This document shows, one piece after another, positions 1-42,456 of a stretch of DNA of 64,000 nucleotides (positions within the stretch are counted from its first letter, which is position 1; the number at the start of each line of letters is the position of its first letter). Both the position numbers and the translations under genes were made by a program. Origin of the DNA: Eledone cirrhosa. Lineage: Eukaryota. The stretch covers positions 181,226,001-181,290,000 of the forward strand of contig OZ024740.1 of the NCBI GenBank assembly GCA_964016885.1, read 5' to 3'. The notes beneath the pieces are model-generated. The model was given only the letters and a program-made list of their open reading frames with translations. It had not been told where the DNA came from and searched no databases.

Positions 1-57
1 ACCACAGTGACCCTGACCACCAGGGCAAGTAACCTCTCCCAGTTTACCACCCTTAAT

Positions 58-3000
58 TTACAGACACATACTCAGAGAAGGCCCATTCATTCGGGCCATA
101 CTTGCTTCTCTCACCCATCTTTCAACAAAATGCTGGGAAGAGAGCACTTCCCTCTCTACCCTGATTTTCCTTTTCAAATGAAATTTGAAAAAGTTAATCA
201 GGGCATCACTGAAGAGGTAAGTGCTCGTCTTCAGCCCTTTCAAACGTGTCCACCATACTATCTCTTTCGCCATGGCCACCAGACAGATAAAAACTGCCTG
301 CCCTTCCCGGCTAAAGGAAGAGGGCGGGGCAATCCTCACGATGGACTCAGCTGTTAGCTGGATCCGTCCTACACGTGACAGCAGGTGTTCGACATAAACC
401 CACAAGTCAGCAATGCTCGGACACTGGACGAGTGCGTGAAGGACGGTTTCGTCGCCCTGCGCGCATCTCGGACATGCCCGGCTGACGGCACCTCCATGCC
501 TGTAGAGTTTATCCCGAACTGGCAAAGCTCCCCGGTAGCACTGCCAGGCCAGGGATTTCTGGAAGTTGTCCATAGGCCCCGGCCCGAAAGTCGTTCCGAA
601 GAGATTGGCTAGTTGATTTTCGTCGACGCCTAGAGTTTCTCCAAGTACGTCGTCGCTCTTCCCCTCCACTAATCCCCTATAGAACGCCGAGGTGGAGTTT
701 CCACTGATCACATTGCCCGATTGGTCGAGGGCTTTGAGCGCCTGAATACATTCCAGTCTCCAAGCGCTCCCTCTCCGTCTTCGCTTGACCCAGGACTGCA
801 GCTCCGTCAAGGAAACGAGCTGGGGAAAAACGTGTCCAGCAAACGGCGACCACACCTGGTCACCGTCGAGGAAGAGGTGGAGATGCCATAACCTGAGCGC
901 GTGCCTGCGCATCATCAGCCACGGCATGCCCAGCCCTCCACGTAGCGGGTGTTGACAGCAGATGGACCGCCTGAGCATCGGAGCGCGTCCTTTCCACAAG
1001 AAGCGAAAGAGCAAACGCTCCAGCGCAGTCAGGCGGGGCTTAGGACAAGGTACGACAGTCAGGCGGTAGTAGATGACGAACGCGATGTACGCATTCGCCA
1101 CCTCCGCTCGACCTTTCAGGGATAGCTTCCTCTCGGCCCATTTCTGGGTGAGAGAAGCCACCCTACTCGTCACCTCGTCCCAGTTATTGTCCGTCTGGAG
1201 ATTTGGACCGAACCAGACCCCTAGCAATTTAACCGGTCCGTCCGTCCAGCGCCCGACGACGCTGTTGGACGGCTTGGACCTGCCTCTCCAGGTGCCGAGC
1301 TGCAGGCCCACTGACTTTTCCTGGTTGATCATTGCTCCTGTCACGGCTTCGTATTCTCTTAGTGTTGTGCCGATCGGCTCGATATGTTTGGCGTTCGACA
1401 CCGCTACGGTGACATCGTCGGCATATGCTGACACGGATCTTCCGCATCCTAGTTCGCGCGGGACCCCATTCAACGTCTCCAGTTTGTGCAGTAATGGCTC
1501 GAGAGTCAATACGTACAATAGGGACGAGAGGGGACATCCTTGGCGGACCGAGCGCATGATGTTGAACGGTTCCGAAAGGTGTCCGTTCACTCTCACTACA
1601 GAGCAGATGTCGCTGTGCATGGCAGCGATCCAGCCTCTGAAGACGGGTCCAAAGCCAGCCGCCCTCAGGACTGCCGCTAGGTAACGATGGTCGACCCTAT
1701 CGAAGGCTTTCGACTGATCTAAATTGATCAAGGACCCACCCGTGCCAGGTTCCCTAGCTACCCTCTCTGCGATGTATCGCATGAGGTGGAGTTTGTCGTG
1801 GATGGATCTGTCGGGAATGGCGCATGTCTGTGCCTCTACCACCAGACCACCAACGACAAGCGCCAACCTCTTTGCTAGCACCTTGTCCAAAATCTTGAAC
1901 TCTGTATTTAGCAGAGTTATGGGCCTAAAATTATCTATGTTATCCCCCTTGTTCGGATCCGTTCTCACCAGCGCCACCGCTCCTCGGCTCACAGAGCTGG
2001 GAATTCTCCCGTTCTGTTGCCAGTTGCAGTAGACGTCCGCCAAGAGGCCTCCGAACAAGTCTGGCATTTGTACGTAAAGTTCATAGGGCAGACCATCCAA
2101 ACCAGGCGATTTACCCCTTGTGCAGCCAGTCATTGCCTCCCGTACTTCAGCGGTTGTTATCGGCTTTTCGCAACACACCGCCTCAGTGGCCGAAAGCCGC
2201 GGCAGTCCGTCGAGGTAGACACTAAAGTCCATCACTCGATCCGGCCCGCCACTACCCCCGAACAATTGAGCGAAGTGTCGCTGAAAAGCTTCACACATTT
2301 GCGCGGGATCGAGTAGCATGCGCCCGTCGTGGTCCACCAAAGACGGATCGTGGCTTTATTGCCAAGACGCGCCTCCGCCACTCGGGCCCATTGAACGGCT
2401 TTCGTCCCCTCGTGTCTGAGAGCACGCACCCTAGCTCTGACAACGCAGCTTTCGTGCTTTGCATTGAAGAATTGGTCAAGGGCCAATTTCGCCGCAAGTA
2501 CGTCGGTCGCGATGCCTTTGCTAAGCGCCTCTCTAATTTTCTAACTAATTCTCCCTCTGCTCTATTTTTCTCTATTGCTAAAGTCTTACTAAACCTAATG
2601 GACTCTATTCTAATTGCTCTTTTCAGAGCAAACCACCACTTGTTGTTGACGATGTCCCCCGTCAACGCCCGCTGAACTAGATAATCCGGTCTCTGTAGAC
2701 CTTGCGCGCTGGTAAGGACGCGTTGAGCTTCCAGTAGCCGGGTCCTCGTCTATGAAGACTATCTAAGTCAAGCACACGGATCACGAATTTGTGGTCCGTG
2801 TAGCTGACTATCTTGAATTGTTGCCAGCCTATGCTAGATCTATCTATTTCCATACAAAATAATCTATCTAGATATCATCTGAATGACCCGATACGATTTG
2901 TCCAAGTCCACATTGGTACATTCGGGAAATCCAATCGGTACCTGTCAGACAATTCAAAACGCCTGAGCAGGTTGGTGAGACTCTTGTACCCTCCTCACCT

Positions 3001-3469
3001 ATCCACTAATCCCACACAGTCCCAGCGTGCATCTAAGATTCCGTTCCAGTCCTCCACTAGCACTAAAGAGCCGGACGTTCCAAGAAAGGTCTCCAGACGC
3101 CGGAAGGCCGCCCTGCTCCTATCGGAGCATAGACTACCACTAACCTGAAAGCTTGCCCGTCTCCGCTGGTCACGTCTAGCACCAACAACTTACCTTCTGG
3201 GTCCAGGAAGATGGCCCGTATGGCAAGATCCAAACTTCTCCGAAAAAGGACAGCAAATTCCCCCCCCCCCTTCATACCGGACGGCTGGGAGATGCGTACA
3301 CAACGTAGCCGCCGAAAGCGGGTGCCAAGGCCCGTGCTTCGGAGATTCTGGTCTCGCTGATGGCCACTACATGTATGTTTAGTGACCTGAGGTCGTTGAG
3401 CAGGTGGCCCTGCTTCCATGACGACCCCAAGCCACGCGCATTTATGCTGCCTATTCTGAGTGAGGTCAT
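58..3469 (-). pseudogene. Tx1-like ORF2 (APE endonuclease, reverse transcriptase, zf-RVT-like C-terminus), frameshifted
   Basis: RIGSINARGL and VAISET (APE); FRPITLLN, LDQSKAFDRVDH, SVRQGCPLS, AYADD (RT); CPRC..ETVLHALVQC. Split over ORFs 3272-3469, 3063-3503, 2291-2665 and 58-2340. Confidence 0.92.
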
Positions 3470-3503
3470 GTTGAATTGGAGTGGAAAAGATGGGAAAGAC
3501 CAC

Positions 3504-5490
3504 TTACCTTACTTCTCGTAGAGGAAGGACGGTTTCTCCATCCTTTCCACTGCTTTTGCCCTCCTCAGGAAGGATGTCCTTATAAATTCACCTGGAGAGT
3601 GCTTGTCGGAAGTCTCCGATGTCTTTGAGGAATTTTTGTTTTAGTGTCATGTACGTTTTCTGTGTGATGCGAGTGATTTGTATGTGTGGGGGTGGTGTGA
3701 ATTTTTGGGTTGTTGTGTAGTCTTTTTCTGTGATGCTGGTGTTGTGTTGGATGTAGTGTAATAATTGGTTGTTGTTCAAATTTAATGCTGTGTAGTGTGT
3801 ATCGTTTTGGCTGATTTGTTTTGTTTGCGTTTGCTGTGGGTTTGTTTCTGTTTCGCATTTTGGTGAAATTGTGGTGTAGGTGATGGTGGTGTTGGGGTTA
3901 ATGATGGTGATGGTGTTGGTGTTTGGCGTGATGGGGTTAATGCTGCTGGTTTGGATGGTGCCATATCTGTCCTAACTTTTTTGTTTGTTAATTTATTTGT
4001 TTCCCTCTGTATTTTGTTTTTGGAGGGGGAAGGAAGAGAATTTTTTCTTTTATAGTTTCTTTTTTTTTTCCTGATACCGTTTCTCACTCCTCGTCGTCAC
4101 AATCTGTCTCCAGTTGTGATAGGCCGGGGAGTGGAAACTCCTCCACAGCCGTTAGTTTTGGTTGTGGCGTGGTGGAAGGTGTAGGCGCTGGTGATAGTTC
4201 TGAAGCGTTGGGTGGTGGTGGTGTTGGTTTTGCTGGTGGTGATGGTGTTGGTTTTGCTACTGTTGCTGGGGTTGCTGCTTTTATAGTTGCTTCTGTTGTT
4301 TCTGCTACAGTTGTTGCTGCCATCTCTGCTACTGGTGGTGTTGGTGGTTGAGTAACTAGGGTCGGTAGGAGAAGTGGTCTCAACCTTTTAGCCTGAGAAC
4401 AGAAATCCCTTAGGCGGGTTCCTTCACCACAAACGACACACCTAGGCCTTCTGCCCTCCCCAATTACGGTGAGGTGGCTGCCGTCAGTGAGGTCTATTAC
4501 CTCTGGGATCTCCTCAATGCTTTTTTGGTCCGCTTGGATCAGGAGCTCCATCCCAGATCCGGACCAGTTCTCCTGCTTTTCTTTTGCTATTGCTATTATC
4601 TTTGTGCTGGCTTCGATGCCGGCGAGGACGGCCGCTATTAGCCAGGGAATTTCGATGGCCGGTGGAACGTGGGTCACCCTGATCTTTACGAGTCTCTGGC
4701 CACAATAGCTTGGGACGAGTGTGAAGTCGTCACTTTTTAATGGGGCCATGGAGTGTTCTCTAGCCTCCTCTGGTGTTTCAAAGAACACATCCACGGTTCC
4801 ATACTTTTGCCCACGTCTTATGTGGGTTTTTCTTGCCCACACATGTCCCAAAGCTTTTTGGATTTGGGAATCGGATGCCCTTCCACTCGGCGCTATTTTA
4901 CATTAATTGTTCGATACGACACGGTGCATAGGCGCCGATGCTCCATTTTATTAGGTGTGGCGGGGGGGGGGGGGGGGGGGGCTGACCCTGTACCCATCTT
5001 TCTTTACCATTTTTTTGGCATTTTCTAATTCCGCCTGAGATACCGTAAATGCTTCGCACTGTTTTGCTACTCTGGCAAAACTCAGGGTGGTTTTTTTTAA
5101 CGTCATTTTTGCTTTTGTTGTTATCGTTATTTTTGTTATTATTAATTTTAGTTTCAGTTGTGGTGGTGGTGACGTCAGTGGTGTTTGGTGTGGAAGTGGA
5201 ATAGTCCATTTTGGTTGAAATTATTTCGACATCACGAGTTGATTTATTTTTCCTTTTGTTTCTGTTGTCGCGGTGGTGGTTGTCGCGGTGGTGGTGGAGG
5301 CTTTAACACCTGCAGTCATTGGTAATGGCGGGAAATGAATGTCTGCCTGAGACAAATATAAAATATTGCTACTGCTTATATTTGTTGTAGTGTTGGCAAA
5401 CGTAGTAACATTTACAATGGTGGTGTCGGTGTGAGGTGTTAATTTATGAGGAAGGCTTTTAGCTGCTTGGTGCAGAGGTGAATTAGCCAT
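3504..5490 (-). pseudogene. Tx1-like ORF1, type 1 (RRM-like region, CCHC knuckle, Pro/Thr-rich), disrupted
   Basis: Fragments 5221-5490, 4898-5209, 4084-4851, 3782-4087 and 3588-3779 are colinear with copy C. Knuckle CVVCGEGTRLRDFC; ends LREVR*. The start position is uncertain. Confidence 0.75.
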
Positions 5491-5700
5491 TTTTTTTTCA
5501 AAGAAATGTTTTGATAATCATAAAAGTTTAAATTTTGGGCACAAGGCCCCAATCTTTTTGGGTGTCCTTTTCGGAAAACAATGTATGTGCGCTTATATAT
5601 AGTTAACAATAACAATTTTCCATAAATGGCAATTTTTAACAAACGGAAATAACAAACCTTTGCGGACCTCACGATGATACGATTTACTACGTAGGTCGCC

Positions 5701-5740
<40 letters not shown>

Positions 5741-5890
5741 TGGAACGCTTCAAAAGGCATGCTTGCTTGGAACAGCAAGAACCCTCCGATACGTCCTGAA
5801 TATCTGAGGCTGCAGGTAGTGGCTTGATATTCAATCCAACGGACTTTCCAGTTAACCAACATCAATGACTGAGATTCAAGGAATAACAAC

Positions 5891-5932
<42 letters not shown>
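5701..5932 (+). mobile_element. (AAT)n, a ~145 bp 3' fragment of the R4/Dong-like LINE (5741-5887), then (AAT)n
   Basis: Matches the end of ORF 13372-16422 (GTLQKACLLGTARTLRYVLNI*) plus its 3'UTR. Confidence 0.92.
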
Positions 5933-5934
<2 letters not shown>

Positions 5935-6182
5935 TTTCTTTATTAACCACAAGGGTTTACATAAAGTAGACATTAAGGACAGTGCAGGACAATGCAGGAC
6001 GGTACAAATGGGCATTTCTGCGTGTAAAAAACAAAAACAGAGGATGTAACAAAAAATAACAATGAAAAATTCCCCAATAGGGGGCAAACTTCGGAGGGAC
6101 ATTTGTGGAGAAAGCCCAGTAAAAAGCCACAATGACCCTGACCACCAAGGCAAGTGCCCTCTCCCAGTTTTCCACCTTTAAT

Positions 6183-9100
6183 TTACAGATATATACTCAG
6201 AGTAGGCCAATTCACTCGGGCCATTCTTGCTTCTCTCACCCATCTTTCAACAAAATGCTGGGAAGAGAGCACTTCCCTCTCTACTCTGATTTTCCTTTTC
6301 ATATGAAATTTGAAAAAGTCAATCAGAGCATCACCGAAGAGGTAAGTGCTCGTCTTCAGCCCTTTCAAACGTGTCCACCATACTATCTCTTTCACCATGG
6401 CCACCAGGCAGATAAAAACTGCCTACCCTTCCCGGCTAAAGGAGGAGGGCGGGGCAATCCTCACGATGGACTCAGATGATAGCCGGATCCGTCCTAAACG
6501 CGACAGCAGGTGTTCGACATAAACCCACAAGTCAGCAATTTTCGGACACTGGACGAGTGCGTGCAGGACGGTTTCGTCGCCCTGCGCGCATCTCGGACAT
6601 GCCCGGCTGACGGCACCTCCATGACTGTAGAGTTTATACCGAACTGGCAAGGCTCCTCGGTAGCACTGCCAGGCCAGAGATTTCTGGAAGTTGTCCATAG
6701 GCCCTGGCCCGAAAGTTCTTCCGAAGAGATTGGCTAGTTGATTTTCGTCGACGCCTAGAGTTTCCCCAAGTACGTCGTCGCTCTTCCCCTCCACTAATCC
6801 TCTATAGAACGCCGAGGTGGAGTTTCCACCGATCACATTGCCCGATTGGTCGAGGGCTGTGAGCGCCTGAAGACATTCCAGTCTCCAGGCGCTCCCTCTC
6901 GGTCTTCGCTTGACCCAGGACTGCAGCTCCGTCAAGGAAACGAGCTGGGGAAAAACGCGTCTAGCAAACGGCGACCACACCTGATCACCGTCGAGGAAGA
7001 GGTGGAGATGTCGTAGCCTGAGCGCGTGCCTGCGCATCATCAGCCACGGCATGCCCAGCCCTCCACGTAGCGGGTGTTGACAACAGATGGACCGCCTGAC
7101 CATCGGAGCACGTCCCTTCCACAAAAAGCGAAAGAGCAAACGCTCCAGCGCAGTCAGGCGAGGCTTAGGACAAGGTACGACGGTTAGGCGGTAGCAGATG
7201 ACAGACGCGATGTACGCGTTAGCCACCTCCGCTCGACCTTTCAGGGATAGCTTCCTCTCGGCCCATTTCTGGGTGAGAGAAGCCACCCTGCTCGTCACCT
7301 CGTCCCAGTTTTTGTCCGTCTGGAGGTCCGGACCGAACCAGACCCCTAGCAATTTAACCGGTCCGTCCGTCCAGCGCCCGACGACGCTGTTGGACGGCAT
7401 GGACCTGCCTCTCCAGGTGCCGAGCTGCAGGCCCACCGACTTTTCCTGGTTGATCATTGCTCCTGTCACAGCTTAGTATTCTCTTAGTGTAGTGCCGATC
7501 GCCTCGATGTGTTTGGCGTTCGACACCACTACGGTGACATCGTCCGCATATGCTGACACGGATCTTCCGCATCCTAGTTCGCGCGGGACTCCCCTCAACG
7601 TCTCCAGTTTGTGCAGTAATGGCTCGAGAGTCAATACGTACAAGAGGGACGAGAGGGGACATCCTTGGCGGACCGAGCGCATGATGTTGAACGGTTCCGA
7701 CAGGTGACCGTTCACTCTCACCACAGTGCAGATGTCGCTGTGCATGGCAGCGATCCAGCCTCTGAAGACGGGCCCAAAGCCAGCCGCCCTCAGGACTGCC
7801 GCTAGGTAACGATGGTCGACCCTATCGAAAGCTTTCGACTGATCTAAATTGATCAAGGACCCACCCGTGCCAGGTACCTTAGCTACCCTCTCTATGATGT
7901 ATCGCATGAGGTGGAGGTTGTCGTGGATGGATCTGTCGGGAATGGCGCATGTCTGCGCCTCTCCCACCAGACCACCAACGACAAGCGCCAACCTCTTTGC
8001 AAGCACCTTGGCCAAAATCTTGAACTTTGTGTTTAGCAGAGTTATGGGCCGGAAATTTTCTATGTTATCCCCCTTGTTCGGATCCTTTCTCAGCAGTGCC
8101 ACCGCTCCTCGGCTCACAGAACTGGGAATTCTCCCGTTCTGTTGCCAGTTGCAGTAGACGTCCGCCAAGAGGCCTCCGAACAAGTCTGGCATCTGTACGT
8201 AAAGTTCATAGGGCAGACCATCCAAACCAGGCGATTTACCCCTTGTGCAGCCAGTCATTGCCTCCCTTACTTCAGCGGCTGTTATCGGCTTTTCGCAACA
8301 CTTCGCCTCAGTGGCCGAGAGCCGCGGCAGTCCGTCGAGGTAGACACTAAAGTCCATCCCTCTACCCGGCCCACCGCTGCCCCCGAACAGCTGAGCGAAG
8401 TGTCGCTGAAAAGCTTCACACATTTGCCCGGGATCGAGTAGCATGCGCCCGTCGTGGTCCACCAAAGACCGGATCGTGGCTTTGTTGAAACGACGCGCCT
8501 CCGCCACTCGGGCCCATTGAACGGCTTTCGTCCCCTCGTGTCTGAGAGCACGCACCCTAGCTCTGACAACGCAGCCTTCGTGCTTTGCATTGAAGAATTG
8601 GTCAAGGGCCAATTTCGCCGCAAGCACGTCGGTCGCAATGCCTTTGCTAAGCGCCTCGTCTAATTTTCTAACTAGTTCTCCCTCTGCTCTATTTTTCTCT
8701 ATTGCTAAAGCCTTACTAAACCTAATCGATTCTATTCTAATCGCTCTTTTCAGAGCAAACCACCACTTGTTGTTGACGATGGCCCCCGTCAACGCCCGCT
8801 TAACTTTCGCTAATCCGGTCTCTGTAGGCCTTGCGCGCTGGTAAGGACGCGTTTAGCTTCCAGTAGCCGGGTCCTCGTCTATGAAGCCTATCTAAGTCAA
8901 GCACACAGGTCACGAATTTGTGGTCCGTGTAGCTGACTATCTTGAATTGTGGACAGCCTATGCTAGACCTATCTATTTCCCTACAAAATACTCTATCTAG
9001 ATATGATCTGACCCTATGCGGTTTGTCCAAGTCCACATTGGCACATTCGGGAAATCCAATCGGTACCTGTCAGACAGTTCAAAACGCCTGAGCAGGTTGG

Positions 9101-9596
9101 TGAGGCTCTTGCACCCTCCACCCCTATCCGCTAATCCCACACAGTCCCAGCGTGCATCTAAGATCCCGTTCCAGTCGCCCACTAACACTAAAGAGCGGGA
9201 CGTTCCAAGAAAGGTCTCCAGACGCCGGAAGAAATCAGGCCGCCCTGCTCCTGTCGGGGCATAGACGGCCACTAGCCTGAAAGCTTGCCCGGCTCCGCTG
9301 GTCACGTCCAGCACCACCAGCTTACCCTCTGGGTCCAGGAAGATGGCCCGTAGGGCGAGATCCAAACCTCTCCGAAAAAGCACAGCAACTCCTCCACCGG
9401 ATCCAGGACGGCTGGGAGATGCGTACACATCGTAGCCGCCGAAGATCGGTGCGAAGGCCCGTGCTTCGGAGATTCTGGTCTCGCTGATGGCCACTACATC
9501 TATGTTTAGTGACCTGAGGTCGTTGAGCAGGTGACCCTGCTTCCATGACGACCCCAAGCCACGCGCATTTATGCTGCCTATTCTGAGTGAGGTCAT
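6183..9596 (-). pseudogene. Tx1-like ORF2 of copy B (APE + RT) with stops and frameshifts
   Basis: ORFs 8997-9596, 8800-9036, 7473-8792, 6423-7469 and 6183-6404. In-frame stops at 7473 and 6423. Confidence 0.92.
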
Positions 9597-9631
9597 GTTT
9601 AAAATAGAGTGGAAAAGATGGGAAAGACCAC

Positions 9632-11726
9632 TTACCGTACTTTTGGTAGAGGAGGGATGATTTTTACATCCCTTTTCACTTGATCGTCTGGTGAAGGGAC
9701 CGTTGAATCGTCCCTTCGGCTGGTCGTCGGCTCTTCTAAGAGAATGTCTGAATATACTCTTCGATTGATCGTTCCTCCTAGGTCCCTGAAATCACCAACT
9801 GCGTTGGGGAATTTCGTTTTAATGTTTGTGTATTGTTTCTGTGCTATTTTTAGCAGTCTTATGTTAGTTGGCGTTTTGATTGGTGCTGGTATTATGTAGT
9901 CCTGTTGTGAAATGTCTGTGTGTTCAATTATGTAAGTCATTAGTTTCTTGTTGTGTGTGTTTATTGCCGTGCATTTGTTTTTCTGGGGGTGGGGTGTGGT
10001 TCTGCTATTTTCTTGTCGTTGTTGCTGGGTGTGTGTGTTTTGTTGTTGTGTTTGCGATGTTGGTGCTTGTGGTGGTGGAGTTGAAGGTGTTGTTGGCGGT
10101 GGGGTTGTCGCCGGTGGAGATGGTGGTGCTGGTGTGGGTGGTGATGGTGTTGGTGGTGTTGCTGCTGTGGGTCTCTTTGCAGTAGACTTTACCCTTTTCT
10201 CATTTCTTTCCTCCCTTTTCAAAGGCGACGATGCGCTGCTTCTGCGTTTGTGCCTTCTTGCGACCTTTTGCCATCCCTCTCCCACCTAACACTCCATGTC
10301 TGATTCTGTGAGGTCGGGGAGGGGTACCAGCTCCACTCTTTCAGTTGTTGTTGTTGGTGATGTTTGCACTGGAGTCTCTGTTGCAGCTGCATTTGGTATT
10401 GCTGTTGTTGTTGTTAATATTTCCACTGCTGCTGCAGTTTTTGATTTCCGTGGAGTGGGTATGGGTGCCACGGACCTATCGTTCCTGGTTGCCGCTTGTC
10501 CTGTTGCTGGTAGCCGTGGAGCCGGATTCGGAAGGAGGGGGGTTTTCTCCTTTCTCAGGGTCTTCTCGTTGTAGAAGGCCCTGAGGTGAGTCTTCGATCC
10601 ACAGCGAAAGCATTTCGGGCGTTTGCCCTCAACACTTATGGGCAGTTGAGTGCCGTTATCGAAGTCTATCACATCCGGGATAGCTTCGATGCACTCCTGG
10701 TTGGTTTGGATTAGCATCTCAATGGAGGAGCCGACCCAATCTTCTCCTACTTTTTTCTGTACTTGCAGTACAGTTGTTTTGTCCTCGATTCCGACGAGGA
10801 CGGACGGGGCCAGCCAAGAAGGGGTCATTCCGGGGGGGACGTGGGTCAGTTTGACCCTCACAATTTTTTGCCCGCAGTAGGAGGGCACCAACACCATTTC
10901 CTCGCTCCTTAGGGTCACTACTGATTGGGCCTTTGCCTCCTGGGGTGTGGCAAAAAGTACGTCTACGGTGGCATATTTTTTGCCTCGGGTGATGTGCGTT
11001 TTTCGCTGCCACACAGACCCCAAGGCTTTTTGTATTTGGGCCTGTGGCTCTTTCCACCCTACGGAATTTTGTACTTACTGTACGGTATGTGACCGTACAG
11101 TGCTCTTGGGTTTCGAAAAACTTTTCCGCTGCCTTGCAGATTGCTCGGTGTCCGTTCTTTGTCACCATCTTCTTCGCTTCCTCTAATTCCTCATTTGTTA
11201 TGAGGATTGTTTCCAAGTTTTTCGCAATACCTGCAAATGAGATTGGTTTTTCTCTGCTGTTGTTGTTGTCGTCAGAGCTGCTGGTACTTTTGTTGTTGCT
11301 GCAGGTACTACGACTACTGCCTCCGCCTCTGTTGCTGTGGTTGTTGTTGGTGTTGCTGCTGCTAATGCTGTTGTTGTTTATGCTGCTGGTGATGCTGTTG
11401 CGGCTGCTACTGTTGTTTTCATTGTCACTGTTGCTGTTGTTATTACGGCTGCTACTGCTATTATTCCTGACGTCAGACGAATGAACTGGGTTTTCGTATT
11501 TCCCGCACACCTGTTTCGTCGCTGTCGTCGTCGTCGTGGAGAAACCTTGCACGCTTTGCACGAGACTTTTCTTTTCTTTCGTCACTTGCGAAAGAGAAGG
11601 GAGGGAGAGAGACACATTTAAAGAAGGGAGGGAGAGAGACAATCTTCTCTCTGCTGTAGTGATGATTGAGGGAGAAGAAAACGGAATGAGTGGGAGTGAC
11701 GTATGAAATTTCTTTTTCGTAACCAT
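9632..11726 (-). pseudogene. Tx1-like ORF1, type 2 (Ser/Asn-rich N-terminus, RRM-like region, knuckle CFRCGSKTHLRAFY, Pro/Thr-rich)
   Basis: ORFs 10719-11726, 10286-11023 and 9632-10285; the last two are in one frame, separated by a single TAG. Homologous to type 1 (LVPSYCGQ, VEG.RP.C). Confidence 0.78.
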
Positions 11727-11965
11727 GTTGTTTTTTGTTTAAAATGAAATTTTGGGTACAAAACCCCAATAACTGGTTATTTAACCCCGAAGGGCCAAAT
11801 AACGGACAGAAAGACCCCTCTCACGAGGAGGAGGGTGTCTTTATGCACAATTTGGTTCAAGTTTTAAACAATTTACAATTGTTTTAACGGTTAAAAATTG
11901 CTATACCTTACAGAGCCGAGCCTCCGTCAACCATGGCATTCAATAATAATAATAATAATAATAAT

Positions 11966-13231: not shown

Positions 13232-13297
<66 letters not shown>

Positions 13298-13298
<1 letters not shown>

Positions 13299-16200
13299 GC
13301 AGGCTCGGGTAATAAGAACTAATGGGTGGATAAGCGAGCTGGAACTGGAGGAACTGAGCAGAGAGAATGGCTTGGAGATGGCGGGTGTAGTATGCCAGAC
13401 AAGCGAGCCGGCGGGAAATGAAGGTGAGGAGGTCCTGAGAACGGAGGAACCACCCGAAGCAGACAATGATCTGAATACTGAGATAAATAATACCTGGAAC
13501 AGAGATACGGCCACTGAGGAGATGAATGCTGCCGGGCTAGGACAAGATTCGGTTGACACCCTAAATTTAGTGGTAGATGAGTTGAACAATGATAGTGGGA
13601 GACCTATGAACCTAAGATTTGTAGACAGGAAAAAGTTAAAAGAAACAACAGCTAAGGTAAACAAAGTCATCCCATACCTTGAGGCGAGGAGTCTTCACCA
13701 GTGCAACAATATCCTCAAAGCAACAGCAAATACGGTGAGGAAACTACTTGGTATAAAAGCGAGAGGAAACAACAGACAAGAAAGAGCAGAGCCGTGGTGG
13801 AAGAAGCGACTGAGTGGGCAAATCGGGGAAATGAGAAATGACATAGGAAAGCTTGAGTCACTACTGAATGGGACACTAAAAAACATAGGCACTAAAAATA
13901 GACTGGAAATAAAATACAAAACTAGGAGTAAAAAGCTAAATATTATCATAGAGGAATTGAAGCAACGCATTGTAGCAAAGAGTGCCAAAATCAGGCGATA
14001 CGAGAACAGAGTCAGTCAGTATAAACAGAACCGCATGTTCGACAACAACCAGAAGATGCTGTTTGGACAGCTTGAGGGGAAAGAAAGAGGCAACGACTTG
14101 ATCCCTGGGGCGGAACAAGCTAAAACATTCTGGAGAGGAATATGGGAGCAGGATGTTAGACACAATGCCCAGGCAGGGTGGATTGAGACAGTACAGAGGG
14201 AGATCGGTGAGCAGGCACAGCAACAGACTGATTTGAGTATCACAGTTGAAACTCTTAAGGGGCAAGCCAAAAAACTAACCAACTGGAAATCACCAGGCCC
14301 AGATGGTGTGCAGGGGTATTGGATTAAACATTTAACATCCCTCCACCCGAAGCTGACGGCCATGTTCAATGACTGCTTGGTGTCGGGTGAGGTGCCAGAG
14401 TGGTTGACAAAAGGTACCACAGTTCTGATAATGAAAGACCGAATCAAGGGTAATGATGTTACCAACTATAGACCTATCACATGTCTGCCCGTAATGTGGA
14501 AACTGTTGACGAGCATTGTGTCTGAGGAAATCTGCCATCACCTCCACACAAACAACTTGTTGCCGGACGAACAGAAAGGATGCCGAAAGAAGTCAATTGG
14601 TACAAAGGACCAGTTGCTTATTGATAAGATGGTAATGGGGAATTGCAGGAGGAGACACACTGATCTTGCCATGGGATGGATAGACTACAGAAAGGCATTT
14701 GACATGGTGCCTCATTCCTGGATCACCAAAAGCCTGGAGATCTTCAGGGTGGCAGATAACATCAGACAGTTGCTGGGCAGGAGTATGGGGTCCTGGGAGA
14801 CAGAGTTGACATCAACTGGAGTATCCTTGGGAAGCGTGAAGATCAAGAGAGGTATCTTCCAGGGAGATAGCCTGTCCCCTCTGTTGTTTGTCCTTGCCCT
14901 GATGCCCTTGACCATTATGCTGCGAAAAGTGAGAGGAGGATACAAGTTGGGAAGGGGAGAGCTTACCATCAATCACCTCCTCTTCATGGACGATCTTAAG
15001 CTCTTCGGGAAAAGTGAGAAGGAGTTGGATGTGCTTGTTGACACTGTCCGTATTTTCAGCAGTGATATATGTATGCAGTTTGGTATTGGTAAATGTGGAG
15101 TCATTGTGATGAGGAGGGGTAGGTTGAGCAGAAGTAACGGGATCCAGATACCAACAGGTGAGATGATAAAGGAAATTGACTCTGAGGAAGGATACAAGTA
15201 TTTGGGCGTTCTGGAGGCTGATGGCATAAAGAACAAAAAAATGAAGGAATTGTTAAGAACTGAATACATTCGGAGAGTAAGGAGCGTATTGAAGTCACAT
15301 CTGAACAGCAGAAATGCCATAAGCGCAGTAAATTCCCGAGCTGTGTCTATTATTAGGTACAGTGCGGGAATTCTGAGATGGAATGTTGCTGAACAAAAAG
15401 AAATGGATAGGAAGACTAGGAAGCTATTGACTATCTACAACATGTTCCACAAGAGGAGTGATGTCGATAGACTCTACCTAAGGAGATCTGAGGGTGGAAG
15501 AGGTCTTATCAGCATAGAGGACTGTGTTCAGATGGAGAAAAACAACCTATACAAATACGTGACCTATAGTAAGGAGCCAATGCTCAGAGCTGTACTGAAG
15601 GAGGGGACAGTAGGCCAGGGGATATCCAAGGAGGAAATAACATCAAGGAGGAAGAGCAGCCTTAAGGGAAAATCCCTTCATAGTACCTTCTTTGAGAAAA
15701 CTGAATTTAGAGATCCACAGACATGGAACTGGTTGAGAAGAGGAGACCTCAAAAAGGCTACAGAAGGAATGCTAATGGCTGCGCAGGAGCAGGCCCTCAA
15801 AACGAAGTGGTTGAAGCACCATATCTACAAGGAGGAGGCTAGCCCACTGTGCAGGATCTGTGGAGAGAGAGAGGAGACTGTGGCTCACATTGTGTCCGAG
15901 TGTAAACACCTAGCCCAGGCCCACTATAAGGGCTGGAGACACGATGTGATGGGCAGGGTGATCCACTGGCACCTGTGCAAAGTAAACAATCTACCACATT
16001 CTGAGAAATGGTATGAGCATAGGCCAGAGGCGGTGATGGAGAACAGTCAGGTGAAGGTGCTGTGGGATTTTAGGATACAGACGGACAAAAAACTGGAACA
16101 CAATAGACCTGACCTGGTGGTTGTGGACAAAGAAAAAAGATCGTGCCTGATTGTGGATGTGGCCTGCCCGTTCGACACGAGAGTGCAAGAGAAGGAGAGG

Positions 16201-16502
16201 GAGAAAATTAACCGATACCAGGACCTAAAGTGGGAGGTGAAAAGGATTTGGAACTGCCATGAAGTCAAAGTGATCCCGATTGTCATAGGCGCACTGGGGA
16301 CTATCTCCAAAGGTTTCCAGGGATGGTTAAAGAAAATCGGCCCCTTCACGCTTTTTGGAACACTTCAAAAGGCATGCTTGCTTGGAACGGCAAGAACCCT
16401 CCGATACGTCCTGAATATCTGAGGCTGCAGGTAGTGGCTTGATATTCAATCCAACGGACTTTCCAGTTAACCAACATCAATGACTGAGATTCAAGGAATA
16501 AC
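13298..16502 (+). mobile_element. R4/Dong-like RLE non-LTR retrotransposon, long 5'-truncated copy
   Basis: Single ORF, ~80-bp 3'UTR, (AAT)n on both sides. Confidence 0.93.
13372..16422 (+). CDS. Reverse transcriptase + CCHC zinc knuckle + PD-(D/E)xK restriction-like endonuclease polyprotein (R4/Dong clade); true N-terminus missing
   Basis: WKSPGPDG, YRPITCL, IDYRKAFD, GIFQGDSLSPLLF, FMDD; CRICGEREETVAHIVSEC; RHD; RPDLVVVD...VDVACP...EKINRY. The frame stays open upstream to the (AAT)n junction (QARVIRTNGWISELELEEL). Confidence 0.93.
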   Translation: MEMAGVVCQTSEPAGNEGEEVLRTEEPPEADNDLNTEINNTWNRDTATEEMNAAGLGQDSVDTLNLVVDELNNDSGRPMNLRFVDRKKLKETTAKVNKVIPYLEARSLHQCNNILKATANTVRKLLGIKARGNNRQERAEPWWKKRLSGQIGEMRNDIGKLESLLNGTLKNIGTKNRLEIKYKTRSKKLNIIIEELKQRIVAKSAKIRRYENRVSQYKQNRMFDNNQKMLFGQLEGKERGNDLIPGAEQAKTFWRGIWEQDVRHNAQAGWIETVQREIGEQAQQQTDLSITVETLKGQAKKLTNWKSPGPDGVQGYWIKHLTSLHPKLTAMFNDCLVSGEVPEWLTKGTTVLIMKDRIKGNDVTNYRPITCLPVMWKLLTSIVSEEICHHLHTNNLLPDEQKGCRKKSIGTKDQLLIDKMVMGNCRRRHTDLAMGWIDYRKAFDMVPHSWITKSLEIFRVADNIRQLLGRSMGSWETELTSTGVSLGSVKIKRGIFQGDSLSPLLFVLALMPLTIMLRKVRGGYKLGRGELTINHLLFMDDLKLFGKSEKELDVLVDTVRIFSSDICMQFGIGKCGVIVMRRGRLSRSNGIQIPTGEMIKEIDSEEGYKYLGVLEADGIKNKKMKELLRTEYIRRVRSVLKSHLNSRNAISAVNSRAVSIIRYSAGILRWNVAEQKEMDRKTRKLLTIYNMFHKRSDVDRLYLRRSEGGRGLISIEDCVQMEKNNLYKYVTYSKEPMLRAVLKEGTVGQGISKEEITSRRKSSLKGKSLHSTFFEKTEFRDPQTWNWLRRGDLKKATEGMLMAAQEQALKTKWLKHHIYKEEASPLCRICGEREETVAHIVSECKHLAQAHYKGWRHDVMGRVIHWHLCKVNNLPHSEKWYEHRPEAVMENSQVKVLWDFRIQTDKKLEHNRPDLVVVDKEKRSCLIVDVACPFDTRVQEKEREKINRYQDLKWEVKRIWNCHEVKVIPIVIGALGTISKGFQGWLKKIGPFTLFGTLQKACLLGTARTLRYVLNI

Positions 16503-34688: not shown

Positions 34689-34973
34689 AATAACAATAAT
34701 AATAATAACAATAATAATAATAATAATGTGTTCTTTATTAACTACAAGGGTTTACATAAAGTAGACATTAAGGACAGTACAGGACAATACAGGACGGTAC
34801 AAATGGGCATTTCTGCGTGCAAAAAAAAGAGGTTGAAATAAAATAACAAAGAAAAATTCCCCAATAGGGGGGGGGGAGACTTCCGAGGGACATTTGTGGA
34901 GAAAGCCTATTAAAAGACCACAGTGGCCCTGACCACCAGGGCAAGTGCCCTCTCCCAGTTTTCCACCTTTAAT

Positions 34974-37900
34974 TTACAGACACATACTCAGAGAAGGCCC
35001 ATTCATTCGGGCCATACTTGCTTCTCTCACCCATCTTTCAACAAAATGCTGGGAAGAGAGCACTTCCCTCTCTACCCTGATTTTCCTTTTCAAATGAAAT
35101 ATGAAAAAGTTAATCAGGGCATCACCGAAGAGGTAAGTGCTCGTCTTCAGCCCTTTCAAACGTGTCCACCATACTATCTCTTTCGCCATGGCCACCAGAC
35201 AGATAAAAACTGCCTGCCCTTCCCGGCTAAAGGAGGGGGGCGGGGCAATCCTCACGATGGACTCAGCTGATAGCTGGATCCGTCCTACACGTGACAGCAG
35301 GTGTTCAACATAAACCCACAAGTCAGCAATGCTCGGACACTGGACGAGTGCGTGCAGGACGGTTTCGTCGCCCTGCGCGCATCTCGGACATGGCCGGCTG
35401 ACGGCACCTCCATGCCTGTAGAGTTTATCCCGAACTGGCAAAGCTCCTCGGTAGCACTGCCAGGCCAGGGATTTCTGGAAGTTGTCCATAGGCCCCGGCC
35501 CGAAAGTCGTTCCGAAGAGATTGGCTAGTTGATTTTCGTCGACGCCTAGAGTTTCTCCAAGTACGTCGTCGCTCTTCCCCTCCACTAATCCCCTATAGAA
35601 CGCCAAGGTGGAGTTTCCACCGATCACATTGCCCGATTGGTCGAGGGCTGTGAGCGCCTGAAGACATTCCAGTCTCCAAGCGCTCCCTCTCGGTCTTCTC
35701 TTGACCCAGGACTGCAGCTCCGTCAAGGAGACGAGCTGGAGAAAAACGTGTCTAGCATAAGGCGACCACACCTGATCACCGTCGAGGAAGAGGTGGAGAT
35801 GTCGTAGCCTGAGCGCGTGTCTGCGCATCATCAGCCACGGCATGCCCAGCCCTCCACGTAGCGGGTGTTGACAGCAGATGGAACGCCTGACCATCGGAGC
35901 ACGTCCCTTCCACAAGAAGCGAAACAGCAAACGCTCCAGCGCAGTCAGACGGGGCTTAGGACAAGGTACGACGGTCAGGCGGTAGTAGATGATGGATGCG
36001 ATGTACGCATTCGCCACCTCCGCTCGACCTTTCAGGTATAGCTTCCTCTCGGCCCATTTCTGGGTGAGAGAAGCCACCCTGCTGGTCACCTCGTCCCAGT
36101 TTTTGTCCGTCTGGAGGTCTGGACCGAACCAGACCCCTAGCAATTTAACCGATCCGTCCGTCCAGCACCCGACGACGCTGTTTTGACGGCATGGACCTGC
36201 CTCTCCAGGTGCCGAGCTGCAGGCCCACTGACTTTTTCTGGTTTATCATTGCTCCTGTCACCGCTTCGTATTCTCTTAGTGAAGTGCCGATCGCCTCGAT
36301 GTGTTTGGCGTTCGACACCACTACGGTGACATCGTCGGCATATGCTGACACGGATCTTCCGCATCCTAGTTCGCGCGGGATCCCCCTCAACGTCTCCAGT
36401 TTGTGCAGTAATGGCTCGAGAGTCAATACGTACAATAGGGACGAGAGGGGACATCCTTGGCGGACCGAGCGCATGATGTTGAACGGTTCCGAAAGGTGAC
36501 CGTTCACTCTCACTACAGAGCAGATGTTGCTGTGCATGGCAGCGATCCAGCCTCTGAAGACGGGCCCAAAGCCAGCCGCCCTCAGGACTGCCGCTAGGTA
36601 ACGATGGTCGACCCTGTCGAAGGCTTTCGACTGATCTAAATTGATCAAAGACCCACCCGTGCCAGGTTCCCTAGCTACACTCTCTACGATGTATCGCATG
36701 AGGTGGAGGTTGTCGTGGATGGATCTGTCGGGAATGGCGCATGTCTGTGCCTCTCCCACCAGACCACCAACGACAAGCGCCAACCTCTTTGCTAGCACCT
36801 TGGCCAAAATCTTGAACTCTGTGTTTAGCAGAGTTATGGGCCGGAAATTATCTGTGTTATCCCCCTTGTTCGGATCCTTTCTCAGCAGCGCCACCGCTCG
36901 TCGGCTCACAGAGCTGGGAATTCTCCCGTTCTGTTGCCAGTTGCAGTAGACGTCCGCCAAGAGGCCTCCGAACAAGTTTGGCATTTGTATGTAAAGTTCA
37001 TAGGGCAGACCATCCAAACCAGGCGAATTACCCCTTGTGCAACTAGTCATTGCATCCCGTACTTCAGCGGTTGTTATCGGCTTTTCGCAACACTCCGCCT
37101 CAGTGGCCGAAAGCCGCGGCAGTCCGTCGAGGTAGACACTAAAGTCCATCCCTCGATCCGGCCCGCCACTGCCCCCGAACAGTTGAGCGAAGTGTCGCTG
37201 AAAAGCTTCACACATTTGCCCGGGATCGAGTAGGATGCGCCCGTCGTGGTCCACCAAAGACCGGATCGTGGCTTTGTTGCCACGACGCGCCTCCGCCACT
37301 CGGGCCCATTCAACGGCTTTCGTCCCCTCGTGTCTGAGAGCACGCACCCTAGCTCTGACAACGCAGCCTTCGTGCTTTGCATTGAAGAATTGGTCAAGGG
37401 CCAATTTCGCCGCAAGTACGTCGGTCGCGATGCCTTTGCTAAGCGCCTCATCTAATTTTCTAACTAATTCTCCCTCTGCTCTATTTTTCTCTATTGCTAA
37501 AGTCTTACTAAACCTAATGGACTCTATTCTAATTGCTCTTTTCAGAGCAAACCACCACTTGTTGTTGACGATGGCCCCCGTCAACGCCCGCTTAACTAGT
37601 TCGCTAATCCGGTCTCTGTAGGCCTTGCGCGCTGGTAAGGACGCGTTTAGCTTCCAGTTGCCGGGACCTCGCCTATGAAGCCTATCTTAGTCAAGCACAC
37701 AGATCACGAATTTGTGGTCCGTGTAGCTGACTATCTTGAATTGTGGACAGCCTATGCTAGACCTATCTATTTCCCTACAAAATACTCTATCTAGATATGA
37801 TCTGGATGACCCTATGCGATTTGTCCAAGTCCACATTGGTACGTTCGGGAAATCCATTCTGTACCTGTCAGACAGTTCAAAACGTCTGAGCAGGTTGGTG

Positions 37901-38394
37901 AGACTCTTGCACCCTCCTTCCCTATCCACTAATCCCACACAATCCCAGCGTGCATCTAAGATCCCGTTCCAGTCGCCCACTAACACTAAAGAGCCGGACG
38001 TTCCAAGAAAGGTCTCCACACGCCGGAAGAAAACAGGCCGCCCTGCTCCTGTCGGGGCATAGACGGCCACTAACCTGAAAGCTTGCCCGTCTCCGCTGGT
38101 CACGTCCAGCACCACCAACTTACCTTCTGGGTCCAGGAAGATGCCCCGTATGGCAAGATCCAAACCTCTCCGAAAAAGCACAGCAACTCCTCCCCCCGAT
38201 CCCGGACGACTGGGAGATGCGTACACATCGTAGCCGCCGAAGATCGGTGCGAAAGCCTGTGCTTCGGAGATTCTGGTCTCGCTGATGGCCACTACATCTA
38301 TGTTTAGTGACCTGAGGTCGTTGAGCAGGTGGCCCTGCTTCCATGACGACCCCAAGCCACGCGCATTTATGCTGCCTATTCTGAGTGAGGTCAT
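34974..38394 (-). pseudogene. Tx1-like ORF2 of copy C (APE + RT), one stop and one frameshift
   Basis: ORFs 37687-38394, 36145-37584 and 34974-36143 with the same motifs as copies A and B. Confidence 0.92.
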
Positions 38395-38428
38395 GTTGAA
38401 AAGGAGTGGAAAAGATGGGAAAGACCAC

Positions 38429-40414
38429 TTACCTTACTTCTCGTAGGGGAAGGACGGTTTTTCCATCCTTTTCACTGCTTGTGGCCTCAGGAAGGATGTC
38501 CTTATAAATCCTCCTGGAGAGTGCTTGTCGGAAGTCTCCGATGTCTTTGGGGAATTTTTGTTTTAGTGTCATGTACGTTTTCTGTGTGATGCGAGTGATT
38601 TGTATGTGTGGAGGTGGTGTGAATTTTGGGGTTGTTGTGTAGTCTTTTTCTGTGATGCTGGTGTTGTGTTGGATGTAGTGTAATAATTGCTTGTTGTTCA
38701 AATTTAATGCTGGGTAGTGTGTATCGTTTTGGTTGTTTTGTTTTGTTTGCGTTTGTTGTGGGTTTGTTTCTGTTTCGCATTTTGGTGACTTTTGTGGTGT
38801 AGGTGATGGTGGTGTTGGAGTTAATGATGGTGATGGTGTTGGTGTTTGGGTTGATGGGGTTGGTGATGCTGGTGTGGATGGTGGCATATCTGTCCTAACT
38901 TTTTTGTTTCTTAGTTTATTTGTTTCCCTCTGTATTTTGTTTTTGGAGGGGGAAGGAAGAGAATTTTTTCTTTTTTGGTTTCTTTTTTTTTCCGGATATC
39001 GTTTCCCACTCCTCGTCGTCACAATCTGTCTCCAGTTGTGATAGGCCGGGGAGTGGAAAATCCTCCACAGCCGTTAGTTTTGGTTGTGGTGCGGTGGATG
39101 GTGTAGGCGCTGGTGCTAGTTCTGAAGCGTTGGGTGGTGGTGGTGTTGGTTTTGCTGGTGATGGTAGTGGTGTTGGTTTTGCTACTGTTGCTGGGGTTGT
39201 TGCTGTTATAGTTGCTTCTGTTGTTGCTGCTACAGTTGTTGCTGCCATATCTGCTACTGGTGGTGTTGATGGTTGTGTCACTGGGGTGGGTAGGAGAGGT
39301 GGCCTCAACCTTTTAGCCTGAGGGCAGAAAGTCCTTAGGTGGGTTCCTTCACCACAAACGACACACCTAGGTCTTCTGCCCTCGACAATTACCGTGAGGT
39401 GGCTGCCGTCAGTGAGGTCTATTACCTCTGGGATCTCCTCAATGCTTTTTTGGTCCGCTTGGATCAGGAGCTCCATCCCAGATCCGGACCAGTTTTCCTG
39501 CTTTTCTTTTGCTATTGCTATTATTTTCGTGTTGGCTTCGATGCCGGCGAGGACAGCCGCTATTAGCCAGGGAATTTCGATGGCCGGTGGAATGTGGGTC
39601 ACCCTGATCTTTACGAGTCTCTGGCCACAATAGCTTGGGACGAGTGTGAAGTCGTCACTTTTTAATGGGGCCATGGAGAGTTCTCTAGCCTCCTCTGGTG
39701 TTTCAAAGAACACATCCACGGTTCCATACTTTTGCCCACGTCTGATGTGGGATTTTCTTGCCCACACATGTCCCAAAGCTTTTTGGATTTGGGACTCGGA
39801 TGCCCGTTCCACTCGGCGCGATTTTACTTTTATTGTTCTATACGACATGGTGCATAGGCGCCGATGCTCCATTTTATTAGGCGTGGGGGGGGGTAAGGCT
39901 GACCCTGTACCCATCTTTCTTTACCATTTGTTTGGCATTTTCTAAATCCTCTTGAGTTACCGTGAATGCTTCGAATTGTTTTGCTACTATGGCGAAACTG
40001 AGGGTCGGTTTTATAATGTCATTGTTGTTGTTGTTGCTATCGTTAATATTAATTTTAGTTTCAGTTGTGGTGGTGGTGACGTCAGTGGGTCTTTGGTGGG
40101 GAAGTGTCCATTTTGCTTGATTTCATTTCGACATCACGAGTTAATTTATTTTTTTCTTCTTTTGTTTCTGTTGTAGCGGTGGTGGTGGTGGTGGTGGTTG
40201 TCGCGGTGGTGGTGCTGGTGGAGGCTTTAACACCTGCAGTCATTGGTAATGGCGGGAAATGAATGTCTGCCTGAGACAAATTTAAAATATTGCTAGTGCT
40301 TATATTTTTTTGTGTGTTGGCACACGTAGTAACATTTACAATGGTGGTGTCGGTGTGAGGTGTTAATTTGTGAGGAAGGCTTTCAGCTCCTTCGTGCAGA
40401 GGTGAATTAGCCAC
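38429..40414 (-). pseudogene. Tx1-like ORF1, type 1, copy C
   Basis: ORFs 40082-40414, 38916-39914 and 38429-39022. Complete CX2CX4HX4C knuckle CVVCGEGTHLRTFC; ends LREVR*. Confidence 0.8.
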
Positions 40415-40622
40415 TTTTTTTCAAAGAAATTTTTTGATAATAATAAAAGTTTAAATTTAGGGCACAAGGCCCCAATCTTTTTGGGTGTCCTTTTCGGAAA
40501 ATAATGTATGTGCGCTTATAAACAGTTAACAATAAAATTTTCCATAAATGACAATTTTTAACAAACGGAAATAAAAAACCTTTGCAGAGCTCACGATGAT
40601 ACGATTTACTACGTAGGTCGCC

Positions 40623-42079: not shown

Positions 42080-42456
42080 GATTTCATTTATTAGCGACAA
42101 GGGCCGACATGTAGGGGACAATACAAAGACAGGGACAGTGGGGGTTTACAATAAGGTCGAGTAAAAGTGCACAATGGCAAGACTAATTTAACAATGAAAA
42201 TATAAAAATATAAAATAAACTATGCATAAATATAACAAAATAAATTCCCCGATAGGGGGTGGACGACCCTGGGGTGATTCGGGTACCCCACCAATCCTGA
42301 ACCACCCTGCGCTTCTAGGGCACCCAGGAGAGCACCCCTCTCCTCAAGTTAGCCAGCCTATAGGCACATGGTCAGAGTAGGCCCATTCATACGAGCCATT
42401 CTCGCCACATTCACCCACCTTTTAGCAAATGTACTGGGGGGGGGGGGGCAGCACTT
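42080..42456 (-). mobile_element. 3' fragment of a second, diverged Tx1-like family (copy D)
   Basis: Encodes ..RWVNVARMARMNGPTLTMCL*. Different 3'UTR ending CCCTTGTCGCTAATAAATGAAATC-(ATT)n. Confidence 0.8.

Follow-up and report, generated by a model that had tools for sequence, protein, structure and literature searches.

Does the splice-donor-like sequence that lies across the ORF1 stop codon of a LINE in Eledone cirrhosa open a short intron that fuses ORF1 to ORF2, or does it serve the RNA of the element in another way? The question was raised by three copies (A, B and C) in a window of 64,000 nucleotides (contig OZ024740.1, positions 181,226,001 to 181,290,000), which is part of a 3.0-Gb genome. 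An earlier note on this DNA had proposed that excision of a short interval at the ORF1/ORF2 boundary could produce a fusion protein, by analogy with Ogre elements, in which a splice removes stops.

Re-reading of the minus strand bore out the anatomy of the three intervals (Table 1). All of them begin with GTAAGT, preceded by AG in A and C and by CG in B, and the ORF1 stop TAA lies inside the donor at positions +2 to +4. Each interval contains a pyrimidine tract and no AG ahead of CTCACTCAG, at the 14th nucleotide of ORF2, and removal of the interval joins ORF1 in frame to ORF2 (LREV-R-IGSINARGL or LPKV-R-IGSINARGL). As a U2-type donor, the motif agrees with the U1-complementary consensus at 7-8 of 11 positions in A/B/C and at 6-9 across families. 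The donor is also present in B despite its diverged ORF1, as had been pointed out, but B does not count as independent evidence because C and B match at an identity of about 0.7 over the ORF1 end but of 0.92-1.0 once the donor is reached, the donor being shared with the ORF2 module. Compared with A/C, the spacer and ORF2 of B are 92-100% identical and ORF1 is 36-78% identical, with the switch point at the donor (window 9635-10235 versus 38432-39032); the pattern is evidently one of ORF1/5' module swapping.

Table 1. Features of the three LINE copies and of their ORF1/ORF2 boundaries in the window
Feature	Copy	Position	Strand	Remarks
LINE copy	A	1..5700	-	Frames broken; 3' end beyond the window edge
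LINE copy	B	5933..11941	-	Flanked by (ATT)n tracts; tandem neighbour of A (head to tail)
LINE copy	C	34730..40622	-	3' boundary approximate
GT..AG interval	A	3456..3507	-	52 nt; candidate intron spanning ORF1 stop and spacer and reaching 14 nt into ORF2
GT..AG interval	B	9583..9635	-	53 nt; candidate intron
GT..AG interval	C	38381..38432	-	52 nt; candidate intron
Donor-like motif	A	3500..3510	-	Positions -3..+8, conserved element; ORF1 stop TAA 3504-3506
Donor-like motif	B	9628..9638	-	ORF1 stop 9632-9634
Donor-like motif	C	38425..38435	-	ORF1 stop 38429-38431
ORF2 ATG	A	3467..3469	-	
ORF2 ATG	B	9594-9596	-	
ORF2 ATG	C	38392-38394	-	
Pyrimidine tract	A	3480..3501	-	Immediately 3' of the donor; predicted hairpin 3' arm
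Purine-rich stretch	A	3531..3551	-	In the ORF1 end; hairpin 5' arm predicted by folding
Poly(A)-signal hexamers	A	3992-3997, 3781-3786	-	In A-rich ORF1, upstream of the donor
Poly(A)-signal hexamers	B	9960-9965, 9818-9823	-	
Poly(A)-signal hexamers	C	38915-38920, 38703-38708	-	
Second donor-like motif	A	5665..5675	-	About 28 nt inside the 5' end
Second donor-like motif	B	11904-11914	-	
Second donor-like motif	C	40587-40597	-	
Acceptor-like pyrimidine tract and CAG	B	6018..6040	-	3' UTR; A/B/C families only

The frames of A, B and C are broken in the window, and long open ORF2 frames of 1150-1204 aa occur elsewhere in the genome. ORF2 carries an APE endonuclease, a reverse transcriptase and a C-terminal zinc-binding domain (PF03372, PF00078 and PF13966), and the best solved relatives of the endonuclease are L1 endonucleases. 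The separate ORF1 has a CCHC knuckle (C-x2-C-x4-H-x4-C in 9 of 11 family copies), for which an atlas gave zf-CCHC leads at 0.90-0.92 with a low recognition score. With these ORF2 domains and the separate ORF1, the A-type elements and their relatives are APE-type two-ORF LINEs of the L1/Tx1 group. They occur in mixed arrays, head to tail with a period of about 5.8-6.1 kb, and individual copies terminate in (ATT)n or (ATCT)n. Insertion into specific repeats and array formation fit the Tx1 clade, though the trait is not unique to it; the Tx1 label itself is provisional and comes from the earlier note. For Octopus vulgaris, 13 recently active L1-Tx1 families have been listed (PMC13282606).

Searches with two outside homologues gave group D, which has about 70% identity in the APE N-terminus and differs in the ORF1 end and spacer; the family letters D-H are labels coined in the present analysis. 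Family D1 (L101-L121) has more than 100 copies of identical score among the matches listed, mostly with a 1150-aa open ORF2, and was evidently active very recently. Different families share the same (ATT)n insertion tracts (L188, L189, L190 and L198; window 5700-5933), building the mixed arrays, and the E/F/H families terminate in (ATCT)n or (TA)n rather than (ATT)n. A 5'-truncated D-type copy leaves its 3' end at 42361-42441 (minus strand) of the window. The window further contains reverse transcriptase-bearing or zinc-finger frames of unrelated retroelements at 13297-16422 (+), 33473-34321 (+), 54261-55658 (-), 56882-58237 (+) and 62033-64000 (-), and a very AT-rich simple repeat at 60000-62000 (GC 0.11). 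Among database entries, P0002, annotated as an Octopus sinensis tectonic-3-like protein, starts with a fragment of the endonuclease of the element, which would make it either a chimeric gene model or a case of exonisation; loci L122-L126, from metagenomes, belong to distantly related L1 elements whose spacers are long, and they are uninformative for the motif.

Alignment of related families, which had been suggested as a check, revealed that the donor motif is kept far beyond A/B/C. A search pattern written on ORF2 codons alone gave 96 hits, of which 30 were fetched and 27 were true N-termini; counted by eye, GTRRGT stood at the ORF1 end in 23 of these 27 hits of other families, the four others being one truncation, one deletion, one point change and one decayed copy. 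At group-D loci, the donor was intact in 56 of 60 (three loci were fetched twice). The stop inside the donor can be TAA, TAG or TGA, and the motif persists where the stop has shifted by 4 nt (D1 and D3) or has moved out of it (D2). The in-frame phase, which was expected to be conserved, varies among families: the donor is held in phases 2, 1 and 0, with phase 1 in D1 and D3 and phase 0 in D2, as fixed by long open frames. In D2 (L070, L075 and L068), ORF1 does not stop at the donor but continues into a (CT)n tract of variable length, with spacers of 35, 39 and 41 nt, and this length variation alters whether the ORF1 stop and ORF2 share a frame.

Fifteen representatives of three deep groups had an identity of 0.51 between groups at fourfold sites and of 0.06-0.66 in the columns flanking the motif. 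At the unanchored motif positions, G was found at -1 in 15/15 and A at -2 in 14/15; the +1, +2, +5 and +6 columns are invariant partly by construction because the anchor was located with the same motif. Elsewhere in the element, G/GTRRGT has only 0-2 further occurrences per up to 5.6 kb. Since the motif is this scarce and yet stands at the ORF1 end in most of the codon-based hits, the boundary donor is, judged by its distribution, more than a chance occurrence. Its preservation amid half-diverged fourfold sites and diverged flanks, together with its scarcity elsewhere, makes it very likely that the donor is under selection as an RNA sequence within the families of this one genome. Because the three deep groups have one ancestor, this conservation is retention and not repeated origin. 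A note of caution comes from a weaker G/GTGGGT near the ORF2 end, seemingly derived from R-W-V codons, in 6 of 15 families, since its recurrence means that coding alone can preserve a pseudo-donor. We consider it highly improbable that the boundary motif was likewise kept by inheritance, chance or coding constraint without any function at the RNA level. The shared ancestry of all families in the tree, the recurrent pseudo-donor and the fact that a phase-2 Arg codon plus a stop determine six of the eight letters would suit such an origin, but G at +5 and T at +6 are non-coding in the phase-2 families and are nonetheless retained, the motif has survived in three phases, and the flanking columns have diverged between groups to the extent given above. 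On these grounds, we regard the boundary motif as a real, conserved RNA motif.

The acceptor side gave a different picture. We surveyed 18 representatives of known phase, leaving out G and setting aside a copy-specific TAG at 23 nt in E3. The first downstream AG was in frame in 15 of the 18, which appears to be largely one inherited state; it was an in-frame YAG at a distance of at least 45 nt in only four (A, B, C and F4). Five others have a YAG at 30-38 nt, six have AAG or GAG, and in D1, D3 and F3, which include the youngest family, the first AG is out of frame. The in-frame intervals of D2, E1 and E2 measure only 26-40 nt. In D1, with its 1150-aa open ORF2 and many identical copies, an in-frame YAG is reached only by deleting residues aligned with L1 endonuclease residues 8-10, and the same holds for the in-frame TAG of D3. 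Pyrimidines make up 15-18 of the 20 nucleotides after the donor versus 7-11 of the 17 before the AG, so the tract tracks the donor and not the AG. The acceptor of A/B/C is a CAG with 10-11/17 pyrimidines, 23 nt away from the tract, and is not conserved in other families. A conserved short intron with a usable acceptor is thus not seen.

A fusion mRNA would carry its own reverse transcriptase, and intron-less genomic copies would therefore be expected. The scan for such retrocopies found none among 4,222 A/B/C copies, 787 D copies (D1/D3) and 652 E copies. With exact-flank patterns, we found no shortened copy against 2,289 intact ones in A/C, no spliced copy but one internal deletion against 1,933 intact ones in B, and no intron-less copy against 652 intact ones in E. 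A broader pattern required the ORF1 end and accepted any continuation other than that of the intron, which lets the near joins in D and, in both groups, the far joins pass; it yielded three deletions or inversions in A/B/C and three small indels among the D1/D3 copies, and no splice join. The 95% upper bound for the rate of spliced A/B/C copies is about 0.07%. In human L1, 116 of 6,609 full-length copies, or about 1.8%, represent one spliced form (PMC5860796), a rate that would predict about 76 spliced copies among the A/B/C set. This comparison is limited by the exact patterns, which skip mutated copies, by array copies, which are perhaps not independent insertions, and by the possibility that spliced RNA is somatic or is kept from retrotransposition.

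Candidate joins were rejected individually: L031 is an internal 22-nt deletion with both interval ends retained, L206 an 8-nt deletion, L207 a microhomology deletion reaching into ORF2, L208 an inversion, L209-L211 small indels and L212 a nested insertion. L223 joins a weak GT in ORF1 to the proposed acceptor one base off the exact site, an ambiguous case scored as a deletion, and two further joins at this locus are not GT-AG. Joins from the 5' UTR to the acceptor were absent among eight A/B/C hits, with a pattern that would miss the second A/C donor, and a search in D1 gave no match. No run recorded as RNA was found to contain the sequence. Contigs of four runs, whose kind is not on record, were aligned to 37800-39200: no joint fell at the interval among the 15 of 53 joints listed, and three of the four runs contain contigs retaining the interval; as contigs drop rare variants, we gave these observations no weight.

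Of the earlier proposal, then, the widely kept donor and the mostly in-frame first AG stand, and the conserved short intron is not supported, nor were intron-less genomic copies found. We regard it as quite unlikely that low-level alternative removal of the short intron, with the stop and the ORF2 ATG, makes an ORF1-ORF2 fusion protein, and less likely than use of the motif as an unspliced U1 site. The join does stay in frame in A, B and C and retains a hydrophobic residue at the position matching I8 of the L1 endonuclease; E1 and E2 have TTAAC, a tract and an in-frame CAG; D2 has altered phase and has an in-frame TAG; and human introns of 37-65 nt exist (PMC4463651). The Arg codon at the acceptor is AGA in 13 of 13 cases, which is rare for conserved Arg columns (2 of 31), but AG is retained in 15 of these 31 columns regardless, and only 2 of 49 wider relatives have the acceptor Arg. 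To this come the lack of spliced copies, the out-of-frame first AG of three representatives, the very short intervals of D2, E1 and E2, the AAG or GAG acceptors and the residues that the D1 and D3 joins would delete. Family F3 (L132, L145 and L194) bears on the fusion as well, having no ORF2 ATG in 9/9 hits, with ACA in eight and ATA in one; its spread could reflect a non-AUG start, trans mobilisation or splicing. Among unspliced gene calls, the longest of the 120 proteins listed from 989 relatives has 1,302 aa, and a search for longer fused proteins gave two matches, both unrelated. Readthrough of the stop was rejected, as the frame of the spacer varies among families. The donor could instead be spliced to a distant acceptor, located in the 3' UTR or at the stop of ORF2. 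The roughly 3.45 kb of ORF2 would then be lost altogether, and an ORF1-only mRNA would remain, as in the Drosophila copia element for Gag. This we judge unlikely, though somewhat less so. In 8 of 10 families examined, the ORF2 stop is a TAG preceded by 10-13/17 pyrimidines, and the join would rebuild the native last codon and stop in H, E2, F1, F2b and F3 and would give G-W-stop for the native G-K-stop, of equal length, in D1; A/B/C have a 3' UTR CAG with 13/17 pyrimidines, and passages of PMC5580714 and PMC3735527 offer precedents. Set against this, ORF2 of A/B/C ends in TAA and their acceptor would add 20 residues, the E3 and F2 joins would add 50 and 79, and each copy has 1-8 equally good acceptors within ORF2, the site having been picked post hoc. 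No retrocopy of this kind was found in A/B/C or D1/D3, a weak objection, as it would need mobilisation in trans. Both splices could be combined in a switch, in which the micro-intron would give an ORF1-ORF2 fusion analogous to Gag-Pol, the 3.45-kb splice would give ORF1 alone, and the spliced RNAs would be barred from retrotransposition; we hold such a switch to be possible but doubtful, and the literature searched contained no LINE case of it.

The motif and tract might also act in translation, with a hairpin at the ORF1 stop promoting termination-reinitiation at the AUG of ORF2; the resemblance to a donor would then be incidental. We find this rather improbable. Folding predicts that the tract pairs with the purine-rich stretch of ORF1, with z scores of -4.06 in A (0/200 shuffles), -2.39 in C and -1.31 in B, and outside A/B/C the bases -3 to +1 are predicted to pair with the tract at a probability of at least 0.78 in 15 of 16 representatives. 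The motif lies on the stop codon in most families, and passages of PMC5972666 describe translational coupling in SART1 and L1. On the other side, B folds differently and without the hairpin of A and C, and register-specific pairing of donor and tract exceeds shuffled sequences in only 3 of 15 families, so that the pairing is mostly compositional and the hairpin was rejected as a conserved structure. Furthermore, the motif stays when the stop shifts or departs, and its conserved letters fit the donor consensus, not a stem. Masking of the donor by the hairpin is plausible.

Our preferred explanation, held with somewhat less than even confidence, is that the donor at the ORF1 end binds U1, mostly without being spliced, and thereby keeps the RNA from being polyadenylated prematurely within the A-rich ORF1. 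It fits best because a strong donor is combined with no conserved acceptor, with a tract that follows the donor and with poly(A) hexamers upstream in an A-rich region. U1 snRNP would bind the motif, usually without splicing, and the pyrimidine tract would assist as a TIA-type enhancer, as a masking hairpin arm or as both. Bound U1 would suppress cleavage at the poly(A) signals of ORF1 and so protect the full-length two-gene RNA, and ORF2 would be translated from its own AUG by reinitiation. A point against this explanation is that unspliced U1 sites can retain RNA in the nucleus, and a LINE must avoid such retention. Among the precedents, it is reported that the HIV-1 major donor suppresses a poly(A) signal 195 nt upstream (PMC3694450), that a U1 site in the Arabidopsis element EVD blocks premature termination (PMC5580714) and that U-rich tracts downstream of donors are bound by TIA proteins (PMC2964331).

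In 12 of 13 families, a poly(A) hexamer is located 70-680 nt upstream of the donor, which places the donor within about 1 kb of such signals. The 3' half of ORF1 has 40-44% A, again in 12 of 13 families, with AATAAA or ATTAAA upstream of the motif. Against the U1 explanation, the number of hexamers in ORF1 is by estimate close to that expected from base composition, and their position is not conserved. The absence of splice joins in all three genomic sets favours an unspliced U1 site, and the in-frame first AG of most representatives and the acceptor-like sites at the ORF2 stop argue against it. Most families have a second donor-like motif no more than 75 nt from the start of the element, usually at a distance of 22-35 nt, and it recurs in mutually unrelated 5' UTRs (L188, L191, L193, L197, L204 and L213). 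In B, a short upstream ORF (M-V-D-G-G-S-A-L-stop) has its stop inside this 5' donor at phase 2, just as ORF1 has its stop inside the boundary donor. In one run, X4, of a kind not on record, the summed contig depth around 38600-39200 is up to 1,000-fold higher over mid-ORF1 than it is at the boundary, and it drops close to 38703-38708, the hexamer of copy C closer to the donor. As contigs cannot show RNA ends or levels, this is a lead at most.

A donor kept in three phases, where synonymous sites are about half diverged, offers a sharp handle on how a LINE makes full-length RNA through A-rich sequence and on how it rations its ORF2 protein. If true, an unspliced U1 site would extend the retroviral and copia trick to LINEs, and a fusion splice or an ORF1-only splice would be new for the LINE group. 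Thousands of such donors in the genome also bear on the splicing of host genes. Outside subscription papers, Repbase entries and supplements, our literature search found no description of a donor motif on the ORF1 stop of a LINE.

Among the known systems, SART1 and L1 (PMC5972666) have an ORF1 stop, a short spacer and an ORF2 AUG as here, and structure may assist; the passages on reinitiation mention no donor-like motif. Ogre (PMC3735527), to which the earlier note had drawn the analogy, has an intron between ORFs but is an LTR element. Human L1 SpIREs and SpORF2 (PMC5860796, PMC2896524) are a LINE precedent for functional splice sites and for spliced RNAs that retrotranspose; their donors lie in the 5' UTR and not on the ORF1 stop, and they yield either ORF2 alone or a dead end instead of a fusion, whereas no spliced copy was found in the LINE families studied here. 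The Gag RNAs of Drosophila copia and barley BARE1 (PMC3735527) use a donor located where the structural gene ends, as in our LINE, and the removal of about 2.95 kb of pol in copia is comparable to the removal of ORF2 considered here. These RNAs have been demonstrated, and they belong to single-ORF LTR elements that need the splice to gain a stop, which the LINE already has. The Arabidopsis Ty1/copia element EVD (PMC5580714) is likewise an LTR element with one ORF, in which splicing of an intron of about 300 nt has been shown and yields Gag only; in contrast, we deal with a two-ORF LINE and a candidate intron of 26-66 nt. The major splice donors of HIV-1 and foamy virus (PMC3694450) are U1 sites near a poly(A) signal that suppress cleavage and that RNA structure can mask. 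Splicing uses these donors as well, and the site they protect is a single, defined LTR poly(A) site, whereas the hexamers of the LINE are scattered over an A-rich coding region and we infer the function; the position of the HIV-1 donor downstream of its poly(A) signal is a geometry like that of the LINE.
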